The notes beneath the pieces were generated by a model. It saw only the letters and a program-made list of their open reading frames with translations, did not search any database and had not been told where the DNA came from. Of a stretch of 64,000 bases of DNA, positions 39,002-44,971 are shown in pieces; the first letter of the stretch is position 1; each line of letters opens with the position of its first letter. Source of the stretch: Candidatus Kapaibacterium sp. (GTDB lineage: Bacteria; Bacteroidota; Ignavibacteria; Kapaibacteriales; UBA2268); contig OY762428.1 of NCBI GenBank assembly GCA_963665665.1, positions 4,096,001 through 4,160,000 of the forward strand. Direction: 5' to 3'. Position numbers and translations under genes: made by a program.

Positions 39002-39041
39002 AAAAAAAACTCCTTACGTATATTTCGCAAGGAGTTTTTTT
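39002..39041. terminator. Bidirectional terminator
   Basis: AAAAAAAACTCCTT...AAGGAGTTTTTTT between convergent genes. Confidence 0.7.
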
Positions 39042-39055
39042 CTATTTCACTTATC

Positions 39056-41404
39056 TTACATTCCGGCGCTTATACCAATATATGGCGTGCGCGGCCGGCC
39101 GGGGCCGTACACATATCCGGCATCGCGGCCAAGCCCCGTATCAAAATCTTCCTGGAAGCTGTTCAGGATATTATACATTCCAATAAACAGCTTGATTTTC
39201 GATTCACTGCTTACTTCATAGCTGAACTTACCGTTTAATTCAAAAAAGGTGTCTGTTTCAACTAATTCGTCGAACATTACTTCAGAACCGTCAGGCCTGA
39301 TTCCACCGGCAAGGTGGGGTGCTAACATAGGCCCGGTCAGTACCGAGCTAACATCAATAGCGGCTTTCTGAGTAAGTTTCCAGCTTAAATTGAAATAGCC
39401 GTACCAGTCCGGAGTCCGTAACAATTTATCTGTAGTACCGTCGCCGGATTCAATATCATTTTCATTCCATTCAACAGGATTGTCATATTTTGCCTGCTCG
39501 TAAGTAAATCCTGCCCTGAAATCAAATGTATTTTTCTTAGCAGTCTGCAATTCGAAAGTCAATCCGCTGACGTTTGCCCCGTCTTCGTTATTTCTTCTTT
39601 CCTCAACAATTAGCTGTGAGTTTTCGTCACTTATAACAGTAGTATAGAATACATCTTTCAGGTGAGTTCTGAAAAGATCCAGGGAAATTGCCGTGGGAAG
39701 TCCGAACATATCAAATGAATAATCAACGGCAGCACCAAGACTTGTTGAGTATTCAGGTTTCAGGTCAGGTGAATTAAGGTGAATTTTTGCTTCACCGCCA
39801 ACCTGTGTAATATGAAGATCCTCGTCAAATGTTTGTGGAGCACGGTATCCGGTAGAGAAACTACCTCTTAATGATAACTTTTCAGTTATTTTATAAAGTA
39901 CATTAGCTCTTGGGCTTATTATCAGGTCTTTGATCATATTATGTTTGTCGCCTCTTACTCCGAGAAGTATGCTGAATTCATCTGTAAGAGCCCAGTCATC
40001 CTGAAGATAAAAGCCATGTGTCCTGGTGAATTGGTCAATTATCCTGTTATAGGACGGAGCCCTGTCGATTATATCGTCGTAGTTGACTTCATATCCTGCT
40101 GTAAAAACATGAGCACCTGCTAATCCGTCCATCGGGTGAGTGTATTTTAAACCGCCAACATAAGTTTTATTGTCCGAAGTTCCGTATGCATCAACAATTT
40201 CATCGGAATTCATTACTTCTTTTGCTCCGTAGAAACTTTCCCTGTTTGTTACCTGGAATGATACGTAAGCAGATATCTGGTTGGATGCCTGGCCAAAGTA
40301 GTGATCAATGCTTACACCCCCGGAATTTGTTTTGTGGCTGGCAGATTCGCAGATATTCGCGTGGTGTGGTTCCACATCGAACATATCACCGCCCCGCCTT
40401 TCATCGAACAAAGTATGGAATTCGGCATTCATTTTCGTTTTAGAATCGATTTTATAAAAACCTCTTGCTCCGAAAGAATTCAGTTTCAAACGCGGTACTT
40501 CTGTAAAACCGTCACCGTTGGCATCCCACTGCCTGCGGGAACGTGTCATTCCGAAAATTGCCAGGCCAAGGTTCTGAGCATCATTAACAACTGATGCGTT
40601 CATGTGCCCGTTGAAATCCGGCATAACCCCGTCGGTATATGACTGTGTGATTCCGGCGCTGAATTCATTGCTTACAGGATCCTTTGTAATAATATTTATT
40701 ACGCCTGCTATAGCGCTTCCGCCGAACAAAGCCGATCCGCCACCGCGTATGATCTCTACCCTTTCTATCATATTTGTCGGTAATTGTTCAAGCCCGTAAA
40801 CACCGTTCAGTGTTGAAAAAACAGGCCTGCTGTCTATCAATATCTGTGAGTATTGTCCTTCAAGTCCGTTCAGCCTTACCTGGGTGAAACTGCAATTCTG
40901 GCAATTATTTTCTACTCTGACTCCCGGCTGGAAGCATAAACCCTCACGGAGATCGGAAGAACTTGTCGATTCGAACAATTTTGTATCAACAACAGAAATC
41001 TTTACGGGAACATCCTGGTAAATCTTTTCTGTCCTGGTTCCGCTTACAACAATTTCCTCGGTTTCAACCGGCGCGGATTTCATTTTAACAACAACATTAA
41101 TATGAGAATCATGAGTTTTTGCGGAGTCAGTTGAAACAAGCATCTTCTGCTTTTCATAGCCTACTGCGGTAACTAATAATTCATGAACACCCGGAGGTAC
41201 ATTTTTTACGAAGCACTGGCCTTCACGGTTTACTTTTGCACCGAGAACAGTGTTCAATACTCTTACAGTTGCTCCGATAACCGGTCCGTTATCAATATCG
41301 AATACTTCGCAATGTATGATAAATGTTCTTGCCTGGAGAGGTATATTTGCTGATATGCTAATAATAATGGAAAGGAATAATAATTTCAAAATGTTCATTT
41401 TCAT
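39056..41404 (-). CDS. TonB-dependent receptor with N-terminal carboxypeptidase-regulatory-like domain
   Basis: EEIVVSGTRTE, QPGVRVENNCQNC, IERVEIIRGGGSALFG..AIAGVINIITK, YVYGPGRPRT. Confidence 0.93.
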   Translation of the reverse strand: MKMNILKLLFLSIIISISANIPLQARTFIIHCEVFDIDNGPVIGATVRVLNTVLGAKVNREGQCFVKNVPPGVHELLVTAVGYEKQKMLVSTDSAKTHDSHINVVVKMKSAPVETEEIVVSGTRTEKIYQDVPVKISVVDTKLFESTSSSDLREGLCFQPGVRVENNCQNCSFTQVRLNGLEGQYSQILIDSRPVFSTLNGVYGLEQLPTNMIERVEIIRGGGSALFGGSAIAGVINIITKDPVSNEFSAGITQSYTDGVMPDFNGHMNASVVNDAQNLGLAIFGMTRSRRQWDANGDGFTEVPRLKLNSFGARGFYKIDSKTKMNAEFHTLFDERRGGDMFDVEPHHANICESASHKTNSGGVSIDHYFGQASNQISAYVSFQVTNRESFYGAKEVMNSDEIVDAYGTSDNKTYVGGLKYTHPMDGLAGAHVFTAGYEVNYDDIIDRAPSYNRIIDQFTRTHGFYLQDDWALTDEFSILLGVRGDKHNMIKDLIISPRANVLYKITEKLSLRGSFSTGYRAPQTFDEDLHITQVGGEAKIHLNSPDLKPEYSTSLGAAVDYSFDMFGLPTAISLDLFRTHLKDVFYTTVISDENSQLIVEERRNNEDGANVSGLTFELQTAKKNTFDFRAGFTYEQAKYDNPVEWNENDIESGDGTTDKLLRTPDWYGYFNLSWKLTQKAAIDVSSVLTGPMLAPHLAGGIRPDGSEVMFDELVETDTFFELNGKFSYEVSSESKIKLFIGMYNILNSFQEDFDTGLGRDAGYVYGPGRPRTPYIGISAGM

Positions 41405-41565
41405 CTTTTGCCGACCAATATATCAATTCATAAAATATCAATAAATTCATCTCAAACTGATATTCTTTGTGCCCTGAAAAGAAATATCAATTGCCCTAAA
41501 TTTCATGTTCCTATTGAGCTTAACTGCATATTAGCAGTTTATATGTATGTAGAATATTTGGTGAG

Positions 41566-41931
41566 TTATACTACCGGAGGTGCACGTAACCTGTTGTCCC
41601 TGATAACCTGCCTGGAAAATGACTTTGTTTTTTCAGGTATGAAATTGTCAAATTCCAGAAAAAACAGGTTTGTTTCAAGCGAGAACAGGTTTTGCTGAAT
41701 GTAATTCTGATTACTGATATTATCCAGCATGATTAGCTGGAAGTCAGTATGTGTGTGGTCTTTTAATGGAAGTTTTGAGTCTGATGAATTCGAAAAGGGG
41801 TGGTAATGATAGATATAGCCAAGTTTGATAGACTTATGATAATGCCCGTACATTGAATAATTGTATAATTGCCATGATATTGACAAAAACACAATAAGTA
41901 CAGACATCAATCTGATAATCTTCCGGCTCAT
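41566..41931 (-). CDS. His-rich upstream ORF with C-terminal RAPP arrest-like motif
   Basis: N-terminal hydrophobic segment; GHYH, YHYHPF and DHTH; ends NRLRAPPVV*; 161 nt upstream of the TonB receptor. Confidence 0.8.
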   Translation of the reverse strand: MSRKIIRLMSVLIVFLSISWQLYNYSMYGHYHKSIKLGYIYHYHPFSNSSDSKLPLKDHTHTDFQLIMLDNISNQNYIQQNLFSLETNLFFLEFDNFIPEKTKSFSRQVIRDNRLRAPPVV

Positions 41932-41972: not shown

Positions 41973-41980
41973 CAAACCTA
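41973..41980 (-). promoter_or_regulatory. Putative Bacteroidota-type -7 promoter element TAGGTTTG
   Basis: Matches TAnnTTTG about 40 nt upstream of the RAPP ORF start. Confidence 0.45.
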
Positions 41981-42113
41981 AGAAATAATTTTGTTATAAA
42001 AAACTAAAAAATTCCTTCACTTCAAAAACTATAACCAAGTGTTGTTCATTTCGGATTATAATATTATATTGTACAAAAATTATTACTATTTGTTTATAAT
42101 ATTCGGAGAAGAG

Positions 42114-43340
42114 ATGAAAATACTCAAAACAATTTTGGCCTTGGTAATTGTTATTGGCATAGCTGCCTGTAGCGAGAAAGAAGAGAAACCTGTAAAAGAA
42201 ACAACTGATTACATCCGGTTTTCTCAAAAAATGATTGAAACCTATGCTGAAACAGGTAATGAAAAAGAAACAATAGAATATGGATATGAAGCTCCCGATG
42301 ATATATTCTGGGTAAAGGCAGTTCACAAAGATGAAGAAGGAAATATTACAAAAACAGTGGAAAGAAAACTCGATGAAAACAGGTTGCCTGTAAGCGAAAC
42401 AGTTACAGAACTTGATATGGTAACCGAAAGTTCCGAAATGAAATTCGATCCCGAAACCAAACTTATGCTTGCTGTAAAAGAGTACCAGGGGGAATTGAAA
42501 CCCGAAAATCTTGTCAAAACTGTTGATTATGAATATAAAGACGGAGTTCTGTTTTCGCAGACAATCAACAGGTATTCACAGGATTCCTGCTTTACAAATG
42601 CCGAAGGTAAGAAAATTACCGCCACATATAAGATGCGCTATATGCCTGCACCTAAACACAGGCCTAAAGGGAATTATCCTGCAGCAACTGTTCTTGAAGA
42701 AATGGTTGTTTATAATACCGAGTGTTGCGACAAAAGCGATAAATCGCATCACGATAATAAAAAATGCGATGAAGAAGCAAAGAAGAAATTAGGCCAGGTA
42801 GTTCAAAAAGGGTTTACTGAATTTGATAAAGACGGCTATCCCGTGCACTATTATACTGACACTCCTGATTGCGACCACCACGCCGCTGAGGAATGGTACA
42901 AAACTGAAAAAGATGATAAAGGAAATGTAATTGCAGTAACCGGCTATATGAACAAAGCTCTCGATTCCAGCAGTTTCAGGAATGTCAGAACATCCTATAC
43001 TTATGATGAAAATGGCTTAGTTGCTTCAGTAGCAGAACACCGCTATAATCCCGAGAATGGAAAGTATGAATTGATGCATGATTTTCAGGGCTTCAAGTGG
43101 AACCCTACCGGATTGAATAATGATTACAGGCTATATTGTCCGGATACCAGGTCAGAGCACTATTGTTTTGGTGCGAAACATTACTCGGTATCAACAAAGA
43201 CAGTTGAAAAGAAAGAGGGAGTAAAAATTGCTACATACATGAGTTTTGATATGCCAAGCGAAGAAGGCGCAAAACCGGAATTAGTTGAACTGAAAAAAGA
43301 AAAACAGGTAACAGTTAAGTTTGAAATGATAACAAAATAA
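42114..43340 (+). CDS. Hypothetical lipoprotein with YD-like beta-hairpin repeats
   Basis: ATG at 42114 after GGAG; lipobox IAAC; DEEGN, YEYKDG and YTYDENG; Cys/His-rich insert. Confidence 0.75.
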   Translation: MKILKTILALVIVIGIAACSEKEEKPVKETTDYIRFSQKMIETYAETGNEKETIEYGYEAPDDIFWVKAVHKDEEGNITKTVERKLDENRLPVSETVTELDMVTESSEMKFDPETKLMLAVKEYQGELKPENLVKTVDYEYKDGVLFSQTINRYSQDSCFTNAEGKKITATYKMRYMPAPKHRPKGNYPAATVLEEMVVYNTECCDKSDKSHHDNKKCDEEAKKKLGQVVQKGFTEFDKDGYPVHYYTDTPDCDHHAAEEWYKTEKDDKGNVIAVTGYMNKALDSSSFRNVRTSYTYDENGLVASVAEHRYNPENGKYELMHDFQGFKWNPTGLNNDYRLYCPDTRSEHYCFGAKHYSVSTKTVEKKEGVKIATYMSFDMPSEEGAKPELVELKKEKQVTVKFEMITK

Positions 43341-43507: not shown

Positions 43508-44971
43508 CTAACTTCTTCTGATCAGTTTTTTTAATGCTGATATTTCTTCTTTGCTGAAGAAACGGAAAGTGTAAAGAATGATCAGGAATACTGCTATAGC
43601 TAACGTTCTGACCAGAAAATCAATAATTCCGAATTCATCTACTGATATTGTAGTTGTAACAAAATATACAGGCAAAGCAGCACACCATAATAAAATGATT
43701 CTTTTCCACTCGTATTGGTTGGGATAAACCTTCAGGGTGAAATAATACATGACCAAAGCGCTGACAGCGTAGGCCACAAGTGTTGCCCATGCTGAACCCA
43801 AATAACCAAACCACGGTATCAGGACAATATTTAATATTATATTTGATATTGCTGCAGCTCCTACTGCTATGGGCAGAAATTTTGTCTGCTTGGTAATATG
43901 GAAGCCGGCGGCAAAATTGTTGAATGCTCCGTTGAAATAGTAACCAATCAGGATTATAGGGATAATTCCCATTCCGCTCCAAAAATCAGGGCTGATAAAA
44001 CGTCCGCCTACAAAGGGTAAGCGAACCATAAAATCCATGTAAAGGCTTACGGTAAGAAATATTATGGCAGAAAACATTGAAAAATAAGTAAAAATCCTGG
44101 CAAAAAGCTGCTTGGAATTTTTATCTTTGAAATGATTCAGATAAAAAGGTTTCCATGCATATTCAAAAACTGTTACAAATAGCATCATTGGAATGCCAAG
44201 CTTGTAATTCATCTCGTACATTCCAAGTGTATCATCATTTGTCATGGCTTTCAGTATTGGCCTGTCGGCAACATTCAGAATCATGATTGATAAACTTGCC
44301 GGAATGGTTGGAATACCGAAAATTATCATATCCTTCAAGAGCTTAGAGTCAAATTTCAAACTCAGATTTTTTAGAATATCTCTCGAGAAAAGCAGAACAC
44401 CTGTACCTGAAGCTATCAGGTTCGCCAGAAAAGCACCCGAGGCATCCCATTTCAAATATACGATCAGATAAATGTTAAGGCCGACAGTTATTAATATCAT
44501 CAGAAACCTCGTTAATGCAAACCTGCCTGCTTTTCTTGTCATTCTGAGGTAAGCAAACGGAATCCATGTAAGAGCATCCAGGAAGGGAATATAGGCAGCA
44601 TACCTTATTAATTCGGCTCCGTTACTTCCATTACTGACATAAGGACCGATATTTTCTGCAAGGGAGAATATGATTGTAGATATAATACCGCTAAGAAGGC
44701 CAATAAATATAAAACTATGGCTGAAGGCCTTTTTCGATTGTTTAATATCATCTTTAGAAAAGAACCTGAAATAGGCAGATTCCATACCAAGTGAATAGAT
44801 GATATTCATAAACGCCAGAACTGAAAAAACAAAACCAATGTTGCCAAGTTCAGATACGGTTAGATAATTCGAATATATAGGGAAAAGCATAAAGGTCAGA
44901 AAGCGGCCAACAATGGTAAAAACACCATATATTGCGGTATCCGAAGCCAGTGATTTCAGTTCTTTTTTCAT
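43508..44971 (-). CDS. Oligosaccharide flippase (Wzx/MOP family)
   Basis: LASDTAIYG, LGMESAYFRF, ADRPIL, AWKPFY, GSAWATL; about 12-14 TM segments. Confidence 0.88.
   Translation of the reverse strand: MKKELKSLASDTAIYGVFTIVGRFLTFMLFPIYSNYLTVSELGNIGFVFSVLAFMNIIYSLGMESAYFRFFSKDDIKQSKKAFSHSFIFIGLLSGIISTIIFSLAENIGPYVSNGSNGAELIRYAAYIPFLDALTWIPFAYLRMTRKAGRFALTRFLMILITVGLNIYLIVYLKWDASGAFLANLIASGTGVLLFSRDILKNLSLKFDSKLLKDMIIFGIPTIPASLSIMILNVADRPILKAMTNDDTLGMYEMNYKLGIPMMLFVTVFEYAWKPFYLNHFKDKNSKQLFARIFTYFSMFSAIIFLTVSLYMDFMVRLPFVGGRFISPDFWSGMGIIPIILIGYYFNGAFNNFAAGFHITKQTKFLPIAVGAAAISNIILNIVLIPWFGYLGSAWATLVAYAVSALVMYYFTLKVYPNQYEWKRIILLWCAALPVYFVTTTISVDEFGIIDFLVRTLAIAVFLIILYTFRFFSKEEISALKKLIRRS

Follow-up and report, generated by a model that had tools for sequence, protein, structure and literature searches.

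Here, we have analysed a small open reading frame (ORF) in a 64,000-nucleotide stretch of DNA from Candidatus Kapaibacterium sp., a member of the phylum Bacteroidota (GenBank assembly GCA_963665665.1, contig OY762428.1, positions 4,096,001 to 4,160,000 of the forward strand). This whole stretch is called the window, and positions are counted from its first letter unless stated otherwise. The ORF, called the leader in the following, encodes 121 residues (41566..41931, minus strand), precedes a gene for a TonB-dependent receptor, and belongs to a family of proteins with six His residues and a C-terminal Arg-Ala-Pro-Pro (RAPP) tail. By analogy with characterized arrest peptides, we consider it likely that the leader is a metal-sensing arrest-peptide switch, which would set the expression of the receptor behind it through its RAPP motif. 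Judged by its sequence, the leader has the features of the RAPP-arrest class, namely an R[AG]PP tail, a localisation signal, and a position upstream of, and co-oriented with, a receptor gene. A switch of this kind was what a first-pass annotation of the window had proposed, and its interpretation is on the whole supported by the comparison of family members and their gene neighbourhoods reported here.

A family of six-histidine leader proteins

The leader begins with a basic and hydrophobic N-terminus (MSRKIIRLMSVLIVFLSISW), continues with the three motifs GHYH, YHYHP and DHTH, and ends in LRAPPVV-stop. It contains exactly six His residues and no Cys. The RAPP codons (CGT GCA CCT CCG), which form the putative arrest site, are located at 41575-41586 on the minus strand and are followed by two Val codons and the stop codon TAA (41566-41568). 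The first-pass annotation had described the ORF in these terms, with an N-terminal signal or transmembrane (TM) segment, three HxH motifs, no Cys, the same C-terminal end, and RAPP codons at about 41575-41586, and all of this proved exact when the ORF was re-checked.

The leader protein has no family match in Pfam or NCBIfam, and a word-indexed homologue search with it returned only the leader itself. An exhaustive search of 1.84 billion protein representatives, clustered at 50%, yielded 96 relatives at E ≤ 1e-3, and nearly all of them are 113-138 residues long. That the leader is a real gene under selection follows from the alignment of these 96 members, which share invariant residues despite a mean column identity of about 29%. 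H30, H32, H44 and H61 are present in 96/96 members, H42 in 95/96 and H59 in 94/96. The six His residues of the window leader are exactly the six that the family conserves, and its three HxH motifs turn out to be the invariant core of the family. Other well-kept positions are N24 (88 members), G37 (90), P45 (93), P55 (89), R116 (91), and P118 and P119 (94), while no column of the alignment is a conserved Cys. A paralogue of 123 residues, with the identical six His residues and the C-terminal end LRAPPAC, is encoded in the same genome outside the window (contig positions 4599414-4599785, plus strand; equivalent to L009:3415-3786).

Clear matches to the single leader protein (E ≤ 1.2e-5) were found in 5 of 41 related genomes, the window's own included. 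A profile search of 401 genomes chosen from across the phylum detected members in 15 of them, spread over many families. That the phylum is Bacteroidota is indicated by Atlas neighbours, by type-9 sorting domains at the paralogue locus and by the labels of the named genomes described next. An independent set was assembled from named genomes with a DNA pattern encoding only N-x5-HxH-x4-G-x4-HxHP, which gave at least 70 matches in 80 loci; the counts that follow for this set are counts among the matches listed. Forty-eight of the listed matches passed a family filter and correspond to 44 unique ORFs in 42 loci, 40 of which are labelled Bacteroidota. The labels include Bacteroidales, Rikenellaceae, Marinifilaceae, Sunxiuqinia, Spirosoma, Bernardetiaceae, Marinifilum and Acetofilamentum. 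Of the remaining two loci, one is labelled 'bacterium' and the other is a metagenome-assembled genome (MAG) labelled Eubacteriales, whose ORF has no tail motif. The filter rejected 22 listed matches. Most of these come from other phyla and from genomes of high G+C, whereas a few are either Cytophagales variants whose third motif has only one His and which end in an RGPP tail, or cut or altered copies.

A weak relative (E = 1.3e-4) at L042:9412-9765(-) encodes 117 residues with the His motifs and a CGVC sequence, and ends in LRAPPLV. It precedes a TonB receptor of 794 residues, and with its mixed His/Cys ligands it may be an intermediate type.

The RAPP tail and its distance from the histidine cluster

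In the family alignment, a [RK][AGS]PP motif lies within 12 residues of the stop codon in 90 of the 96 members (RAPP in 64, RGPP in 20, RSPP in 4 and KAPP in 2) and is followed by 1-9 residues, mostly by two or three. The other six members have HAPP, a longer tail, or no motif. The approximately 20 residues that precede the motif are unconserved. The 44 ORFs of the pattern search provide an independent test of the tail, because the family filter ignored it. Among those listed, which were chosen by their His motifs, 42 of the 44 end in an xxPP tail (RAPP 19, RGPP 11, HAPP 6, RPPP 5, KSPP 1) and two have none. That RAPP is conserved among homologues, as the earlier proposal implied, is borne out by both sets. 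Moreover, the Arg of the motif is encoded by six different codons across 16 loci, which argues that selection acts on the peptide and not on the RNA.

The tail is also held at a nearly constant distance from the histidine cluster. In 89 of 91 members the Arg follows the last HxH motif at a distance of 53-59 residues, and distances of 54 and 57 are the most frequent.

Outside this family, the motif is rare in the host genome. The 14,163 six-frame ORFs of at least 60 residues in the 5.46-Mb genome, a set that includes many non-genic ORFs, contain RAPP five times and RGPP twice, versus 30 occurrences of AAPP, 25 of KAPP, 29 of LAPP, 25 of SAPP, 28 of RPAP and 19 of PPAR. Within 10 residues of the C-terminus, R[AG]PP is found only in the leader and its paralogue. 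The genome otherwise avoids both RAPP and RGPP, in agreement with the published proteome-wide avoidance of the two motifs (PMC12992588).

In one subgroup of leaders, the tail is NYHAPP and not RAPP (L065, L086, L088, L113 and L115, from Rikenellaceae, Bacteroides and Bacteroidales MAGs). Each of these leaders precedes a protein of about 440 residues without a family match, and not a receptor directly.

Predicted structure and topology

The AlphaFold2 model of the leader, built from an 82-sequence alignment, has a mean pLDDT of 82. Its first element, a basic stretch with a hydrophobic helix (residues 3-28, pLDDT 87-91; 41848..41925, minus strand), is a predicted signal anchor (TM1) ending at the near-invariant Asn24. 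The His cluster follows (residues 30-61; 41749..41844, minus strand) and comprises H30-x-H32, H42-x-H44-P45, P55 and H59-x-H61. In the model, residues 29-34 and 38-43 form the strands of a beta-hairpin, with H30 and H32 on one strand and H42 and H44 on the other, and P55, H59 and H61 are located in the loop that follows. A second long helix (residues 63-95; 41647..41745, minus strand) is amphipathic in the window copy and resembles a second TM helix (TM2) in most relatives, and residues 96-121 form an unstructured tail. A fold search of the model against the PDB gave no match at E ≤ 0.001.

Columns 3-7 of the family alignment are rich in Lys and Arg, columns 8-23 are hydrophobic, and Lys is frequent again beyond column 92. 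According to the positive-inside rule, basic flanks stay on the cytoplasmic side of the membrane. The distribution of basic residues therefore suggests a topology in which the N-terminus is inside, the His loop is outside and the C-terminus is inside. In 75 of 91 members, a segment of 19 residues with a Kyte-Doolittle mean of at least 1.6 is found between the last HxH motif and RAPP, and it ends mostly 20-26 residues ahead of the Arg.

A chain of 53-59 residues is about long enough to span the ribosome exit tunnel and the translocon. Since the conserved spacing corresponds to this length, it hints that the last His pair would emerge on the outer side at the moment when the ribosome arrives at RAPP.

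Genes downstream of the leader

The receptor gene of the window (39056..41404, minus strand) encodes 782 residues with a CarboxypepD_reg domain, a Plug and a TonB beta-barrel. Two of its domains score above cut-off, PF07715 with 71.5 bits and PF00593 with 121.7 bits. Within the Plug match (residues 130-235) lies C168-Q-N-C171 (codons at 40892..40903, minus strand), and the barrel carries E528-D-L-H531 (codons at 39812..39823, minus strand); EPHH and APH are also present. The receptor is separated from the leader by an intergenic region of 161 nt (41405..41565). The gap, the plug CQNC and the three His motifs had all been reported in the first-pass annotation, and all of them were found. The subfamily of the receptor is not indicated by the NCBIfam models: all 25 listed, including those for CirA, BtuB, haem, ZnuD and copper receptors, are far below their cut-offs (best 129.8 bits vs a 927-bit cut-off). 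Among proteins of solved structure, its closest relative is the catecholate-iron receptor CirA.

The same arrangement recurs at other loci. In a set of 18, a receptor with a plug CxxC lies 41-184 nt behind the leader in 13. The other five comprise two HmuY-like genes, one receptor in which the second Cys is replaced, one efflux locus, and one locus with an overlapping or altered leader. Fifteen leader-linked receptors, which are 25-56% identical to that of the window, were aligned. C168 is kept in 15/15, C171 in 14/15, all three named residues of E528-D529-x-H531 in 15/15, H347 in 13/15 and M693 in 14/15. We refer to receptors with both motifs as the CxxC/EDxH class.

Among the 41 named loci listed for the pattern-search set, 34 have a TonB receptor gene as the first gene behind the leader. 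A plug CxxC is present in 24 of these 34 receptors, and EDLH in 20 of the 24; two of the four that lack EDLH are cut by contig ends. The ten listed receptors without CxxC have mostly about 745 residues and score best with the ZnuD model (about 200 bits vs a 950-bit cut-off). A further five listed next genes encode proteins of about 440 residues without a family match, and all five stand behind HAPP-type leaders. The first-pass expectation that such leaders precede CxxC TonB receptors thus stands in Bacteroidota for 24 of the 34 listed receptors, but the family has other cargo too.

Part of this other cargo is found in the host genome itself. At the paralogue locus, the leader is followed by a 430-residue protein with a type-9 sorting tail, a 734-residue BtuB/haem-like receptor and a small lipoprotein. 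The genes are arranged in the same way in a relative (L012), and only there does the middle protein match HmuY (Pfam E = 9.4e-8). The BtuB and haem models are the best matches of the receptors in loci of this type, all below cut-off.

Efflux systems form another part. At L037:2202-2552(+), a six-His leader with an LRAPP end directly precedes a CzcB-like adaptor, a CusA/CzcA pump of the resistance-nodulation-division (RND) family and an outer-membrane factor. The pump belongs to the heavy-metal RND family of CusA/CzcA (935.8 bits vs a 701-bit cut-off), and an IS21 IstB fragment adjoins the locus. At least 20 members of the leader family, identified by one family motif, are also included, under the label 'hypothetical protein', in the source list of RAPP uORFs for Fig. 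4B of a published survey (PMC12992588); 17 of these 20 precede a TonB-dependent receptor and three a TolC-family gene. Because of L037 and the three members that precede TolC-family genes in this list of at least 20, efflux cargo is recurrent, which implies the opposite regulatory sign for these loci. In the loci examined, the leader is adjacent to and co-oriented with transport genes.

Two contigs of Bacteroidales MAGs (L092 and L105) each carry two leader-receptor modules in tandem, about 2.9 kb apart, and their receptors are ZnuD-like and without a plug CxxC. In two other loci, a thioredoxin/DsbH-like gene stands directly behind a CxxC receptor (L030:6432-6893(-) and L039:5951-6421(+)), and a bacterial globin is next in one of them. 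These thioredoxin/DsbH-like genes may point to a plug Cys pair that is kept reduced.

Comparison with known arrest peptides

The closest published parallel is CruR (Bp2923; DUF2946, PF11162) of Bordetella pertussis, an exported upstream ORF (uORF) of 145 residues with a CxxC motif and RAPP three residues from its end, which is separated by 162 bp from the transporter gene bfrG downstream (PMC9426467). Copper sensed through the CxxC of CruR relieves the stall and leads to Rho-dependent termination, mutation of RAPP abolishes expression, and the spacing between CxxC and RAPP matters functionally (PMC9426467). Arrest of CruR at the two Pro codons was shown in vitro in the E. coli PURE system (PMC12992588).

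The leader resembles CruR in being a small membrane-targeted uORF (121 vs 145 residues) with RAPP two vs three residues before the stop codon, and in standing before a TonB transporter after a gap of 161 vs 162 nt. Both also keep a spacing between the ligand motif and RAPP, with values (53-59 residues in the leader family and 45 in CruR) that are comparable by analogy only. They differ in that the ligands of the leader would be six His residues and no Cys, whereas CruR has CxxC. Most members of the leader family are predicted two-helix hairpins, whereas CruR is a secreted chain, and the family is found in Bacteroidota, whereas DUF2946 is mostly proteobacterial. The receptor class is particular to the leader, with its CarboxypepD_reg N-terminus, plug CxxC and barrel EDxH. 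The Rho mechanism and the copper response are established for CruR, whereas either would be hypothetical for the leader.

That the two are not related by descent is suggested by the search with PF11162. It gave no match to the leader at E up to 1 and none among 82 relatives (0/82), and its best hit in the whole genome, located elsewhere, scored 14.7 bits, below the 23.7-bit cut-off. The leader is therefore analogous, and not homologous, to CruR, which is how the first-pass annotation had put it.

A second DUF2946 protein, CutF of Rhodobacter capsulatus, works with the opposite logic: periplasmic copper prolongs the stall, a stem-loop is melted and cutO is turned on (10.1101/2025.02.05.636593). 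Both regulatory signs are thus possible within one family, and a DUF2946 gene also heads the czr efflux operon in Caulobacter (PMC4176598). CutF is the precedent for what the efflux-linked members of the leader family would need. By analogy, the leader would share with it the sensing of metal on the periplasmic side by a nascent chain during export, and a stall at a C-terminal Pro-rich motif. CutF differs in having CxxxC and PPP in place of the His residues and RAPP. Its stem-loop covers the Shine-Dalgarno sequence, whereas no conserved stem-loop was seen at the leader loci. Shine-Dalgarno pairing is little used in Bacteroidota.

A broader class has been published. Small ORFs with RAPP or RGPP are enriched before genes of TonB-dependent receptors (5450 with RAPP vs 722 with AAPP), and they are found throughout Gram-negative bacteria, nearly all with signal sequences (PMC12992588, EMBO J 2025). 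That paper treats the class as a whole and discusses CruR and examples from Streptomyces. Pro-ended uORFs of Bacteroidota are described only as linked to sec genes in another (PMC10987492, as far as this source was covered). In the literature searched, in which the supplementary data of PMC12992588 are covered in part, we found no description of the six-His family as such, nor of its spacing rule, the class of its receptors or its restriction to Bacteroidota. The first-pass annotation was not aware of a characterized His-type version in FCB bacteria. With the general class published in 2025 and members of the family in its source data, the system is less novel than the annotation had assumed. 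If it acts as proposed, the leader family would add a non-homologous version to an established type of switch, of which the class is published and the members stand unremarked in a public list.

The tail is not confined to these proteins. DUF6769 (PF20558), an uncharacterized family of Bacteroidota, has about 140 residues, with a hydrophobic N-terminal segment, a His run, and the end GLRAPP plus 2-4 residues. Three of its loci (L045:1486-1899(-), L046:1483-1917(+) and L047:1489-1911(+)) directly precede CzcB/NccB-like adaptors with His-rich N-termini. DUF6769 therefore resembles the leader in its RAPP tail and its position directly before metal-transport genes, but it is Cys-rich with PHHHH where the leader has three HxH motifs, and its cargo is efflux adaptors where the leader mostly precedes receptors. 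The DUF6769 model does not match the window leader and matches two of 82 relatives weakly (E = 0.0038 or weaker). Homology between the two families was considered and rejected, as hhalign aligns only the last 22 columns with 48% probability. Since DUF6769 and DUF2946 also end in it, the RAPP tail appears to be a module common to unrelated heads. DUF6769 would thus be a second RAPP-tailed leader family of Bacteroidota, apparently unrelated to the first, and a full-text literature search found no paper that describes it as such. The control search for DUF6769 also matches Bacteroides thetaiotaomicron.

SecM, ApdA and ApdP likewise combine Arg-Ala/Gly-Pro-Pro near the C-terminus with an N-terminal localisation signal and control of a downstream gene (PMC10951233, PMC10951299). 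They differ in that they monitor Sec or YidC and precede sec genes, whereas the leader has metal-transport cargo and a His cluster as the likely sensor.

Proposed mechanism

For the leader we infer arrest, metal binding, topology, the coupling mechanism and the sign of regulation, and we would put these together as follows. The basic hydrophobic N-terminus would target the translating ribosome to the inner membrane and would itself remain on the inner side. The next 40 residues, carrying the six His residues on a small beta-hairpin and a loop, would be threaded to the periplasmic side. The ribosome would then stall at Arg116-Ala-Pro-Pro119, as it does at RAPP in CruR, ApdA and ApdP, and at this point the last His pair would be 55-57 residues away from the peptidyl-transferase centre, approximately the span of tunnel and translocon. 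We argue that occupancy of the His site could alter the tension on the chain or its fold, and hence the duration of the stall. The stalled ribosome would sustain transcription or translation of the downstream gene, either by blocking Rho, as for CruR, or by keeping the RNA open, as for CutF and SecM. Release, with termination three codons later, would switch the receptor off. The logic expected for an importer is that bound metal releases the stall and turns the receptor off.

The most likely ligand is a His-favouring divalent ion, and Zn(II) is the first candidate, because the site is made of His only and the cargo includes Czc-type and ZnuD-like proteins. Ni, Co and Cu(II) are possible, as are iron and haem. 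A divalent metal, as the first-pass annotation had suggested, fits the context of the family by analogy with its ZnuD-like receptors and CzcA/CzcB-type efflux systems.

A more specific version of this mechanism seems to us possible rather than probable. The RAPP tail would be a portable arrest module that was joined to different metal-binding heads facing the periplasm at least twice in Bacteroidota, independently of the proteobacterial DUF2946. The six-His family would be a ruler-based force sensor, in which the distance of 53-59 residues to the arrest point lets the last His pair leave the translocon at the time of the stall. One and the same sensor would stand before importers (CxxC/EDxH and ZnuD-like receptors) and exporters (Czc/TolC), with its sign set by the downstream RNA. 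Whether the six-His metal site is completed or not would decide whether the chain is pulled free. If this were true, the family would represent the first nascent-chain metal sensor that relies on His, as well as the first Bacteroidota arrest-peptide regulator described apart from those of the sec genes, and it would give a hint of the substrate of a receptor class with an invariant plug Cys pair.

Several observations weigh against reading the leader as a metal-sensing arrest switch. The support for this family consists of sequence, gene context and a predicted model. RAPP arrest in vitro, in the evidence covered from PMC12992588, was obtained with E. coli ribosomes and not with those of Bacteroidota. 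Some tails of the listed ORFs, namely HAPP, RPPP and KSPP, are outside the motifs known to arrest ribosomes. The hydropathy of the second helix is only 0.51 in the window copy and 0.76 in the paralogue, neither of which has a clear second membrane helix, and mechanisms that rely on insertion of TM2 are therefore not applicable here as such. The gaps behind the leader vary from 41 to 750 nt across loci and have no common sequence or fold, so that no coupling element can be named, and the gap in the window has more G than C (27 vs 21). The linkage to CxxC receptors is predominant and not exclusive. One type of leader precedes importers and exporters alike, and a single on/off logic therefore cannot serve both. 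Finally, the leader protein may have a stable structural role.

Alternative explanations

This last alternative, which we regard as unlikely, can be put in concrete terms. The leader would be a stable protein of the inner membrane facing the periplasm, a His-rich metal acceptor or chaperone that takes metal from the receptor, and its Pro-Pro tail would only slow translation in aid of membrane insertion, or serve for docking. That the His cluster is far more conserved than is usual in a pure leader would be accounted for, as would the confident model (pLDDT 82), the resemblance of most members to a two-helix membrane hairpin, and a leader that is always adjacent to and co-oriented with transport genes. 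It is the tail that argues against a stable protein. It stands 1-9 residues before the stop codon in 90/96 members while its surroundings drift, it is the arrest-competent pair RAPP/RGPP that the genome avoids elsewhere, and it is shared with the unrelated DUF6769 ([G/L]RAPP) and DUF2946, as expected of a portable module and not of a fold-specific motif. Moreover, a fixed distance between His and RAPP would have no evident purpose in a mature protein with a disordered tail, and a role in import is at odds with efflux-pump cargo.

It is less probable still that the leader is an arrest switch of which the ligand, held by the His pairs, is haem, another tetrapyrrole or iron. Ligation of haem by two His residues is common. 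An HmuY-like protein secreted by the type-9 system, and then a BtuB/haem-like receptor (below cut-off), follow the leader at the paralogue locus and at one locus of a relative, and CirA, the closest solved relative of the window receptor, carries catecholate iron. However, HmuY-type cargo is a minority, found at 2 of about 20 loci, and five further loci, those with proteins of about 440 residues, are without a family match. Czc-type efflux and ZnuD-like receptors indicate free cations, and the Cys pair of the receptor together with its Glu-Asp-x-His resembles a site for a bare metal and not for a porphyrin.

An N-terminal targeting signal with a C-terminal RAPP is also the layout of the monitors SecM, MifM and ApdA (PMC7897499; PMC10987492). 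The idea that the leader reports on membrane insertion or secretion by Sec or YidC in the same way, with its His residues serving for folding only, nevertheless strikes us as very improbable, since neither sec nor yidC genes are ever downstream in the loci examined, six invariant His residues with fixed spacing are unmatched in those monitors, and the cargo is consistently of the metal-transport type. The notion of a chance ORF or annotation artefact, which the small size and the lack of a database family might suggest, is refuted by 96 relatives with invariant residues, conserved synteny and a confident predicted fold.

We therefore return to a metal-sensing arrest switch. Control of metal uptake in Bacteroidota is usually ascribed to repressors and riboswitches. 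A sensor in the nascent chain would respond to the periplasm directly and so provide a further layer of control after transcription. The leader family would also be a natural experiment in the design of arrest peptides, as it combines the tail of CruR with a non-homologous head, another ligand chemistry, a length rule, and both import and export cargo. The receptors with plug CxxC and barrel EDxH, a widespread and uncharacterized class, are flagged by it as probable transporters of bare metal ions. In addition, the His motifs and the tail provide a search signature with which 'hypothetical proteins' of about 120 residues could be named.

The intergenic region and neighbouring genes

The 161-nt region between leader and receptor has 30% G+C, and no conserved sequence or structure was detected in it. 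Its fold energy is ordinary (z = -0.9), and it gave no alignment with the corresponding gap of the closest available relative. Across loci, the gaps mostly fold no better than shuffled sequences. In one minimum-free-energy fold, leader codons 104-106 are complementary to the receptor start over 8 nt, but this pairing was set aside as unsupported.

The last 120 nt of the leader gene contain more C than G in 42 of 45 loci, while the long ORFs of this genome have more G than C. As a signal for a Rho site, this bias is confounded by the His and Pro codons and was not counted as evidence. Rho is encoded in the genome.

A terminator-like hairpin of 17 pairs with a T-run was found by a terminator scan 14 nt past the receptor stop codon (39002..39042, minus strand), and the predicted unit therefore consists of the leader and the receptor only. 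Overall, the region contains no more terminator-like sites than expected by chance, and none of them is located inside the gap. The consensus of the promoter -7 element in Bacteroidota is TAnnTTTG. A weak candidate that fits it, TAGGTTTG, is located about 41 nt upstream of the leader start (41973..41980, minus strand), and no TAnnTTTG occurs on the leader strand in the gap between leader and receptor. The consensus is not enriched in the window (77 found vs 77.9 expected), and a scan for promoters of the sigma-70 type was uninformative (14 sites vs 10.7 expected).

Divergent from the leader, a gene at 42039-43340 on the plus strand encodes a predicted lipoprotein of 433 residues with patches rich in Cys and His (e.g. 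CCDKSDKSHHDNKKCDEE and PDCDHH). It has no Pfam or NCBIfam family, and it is not beside the leader in the other loci examined. Further upstream, a gene for a membrane protein of the polysaccharide-biosynthesis type (43508-44971, minus strand) has a clear counterpart (L012:4593-6068(+)) beside the HmuY-type leader locus of the relative. The upstream neighbourhood is therefore common to the two loci, while the cargo behind the leader is different.

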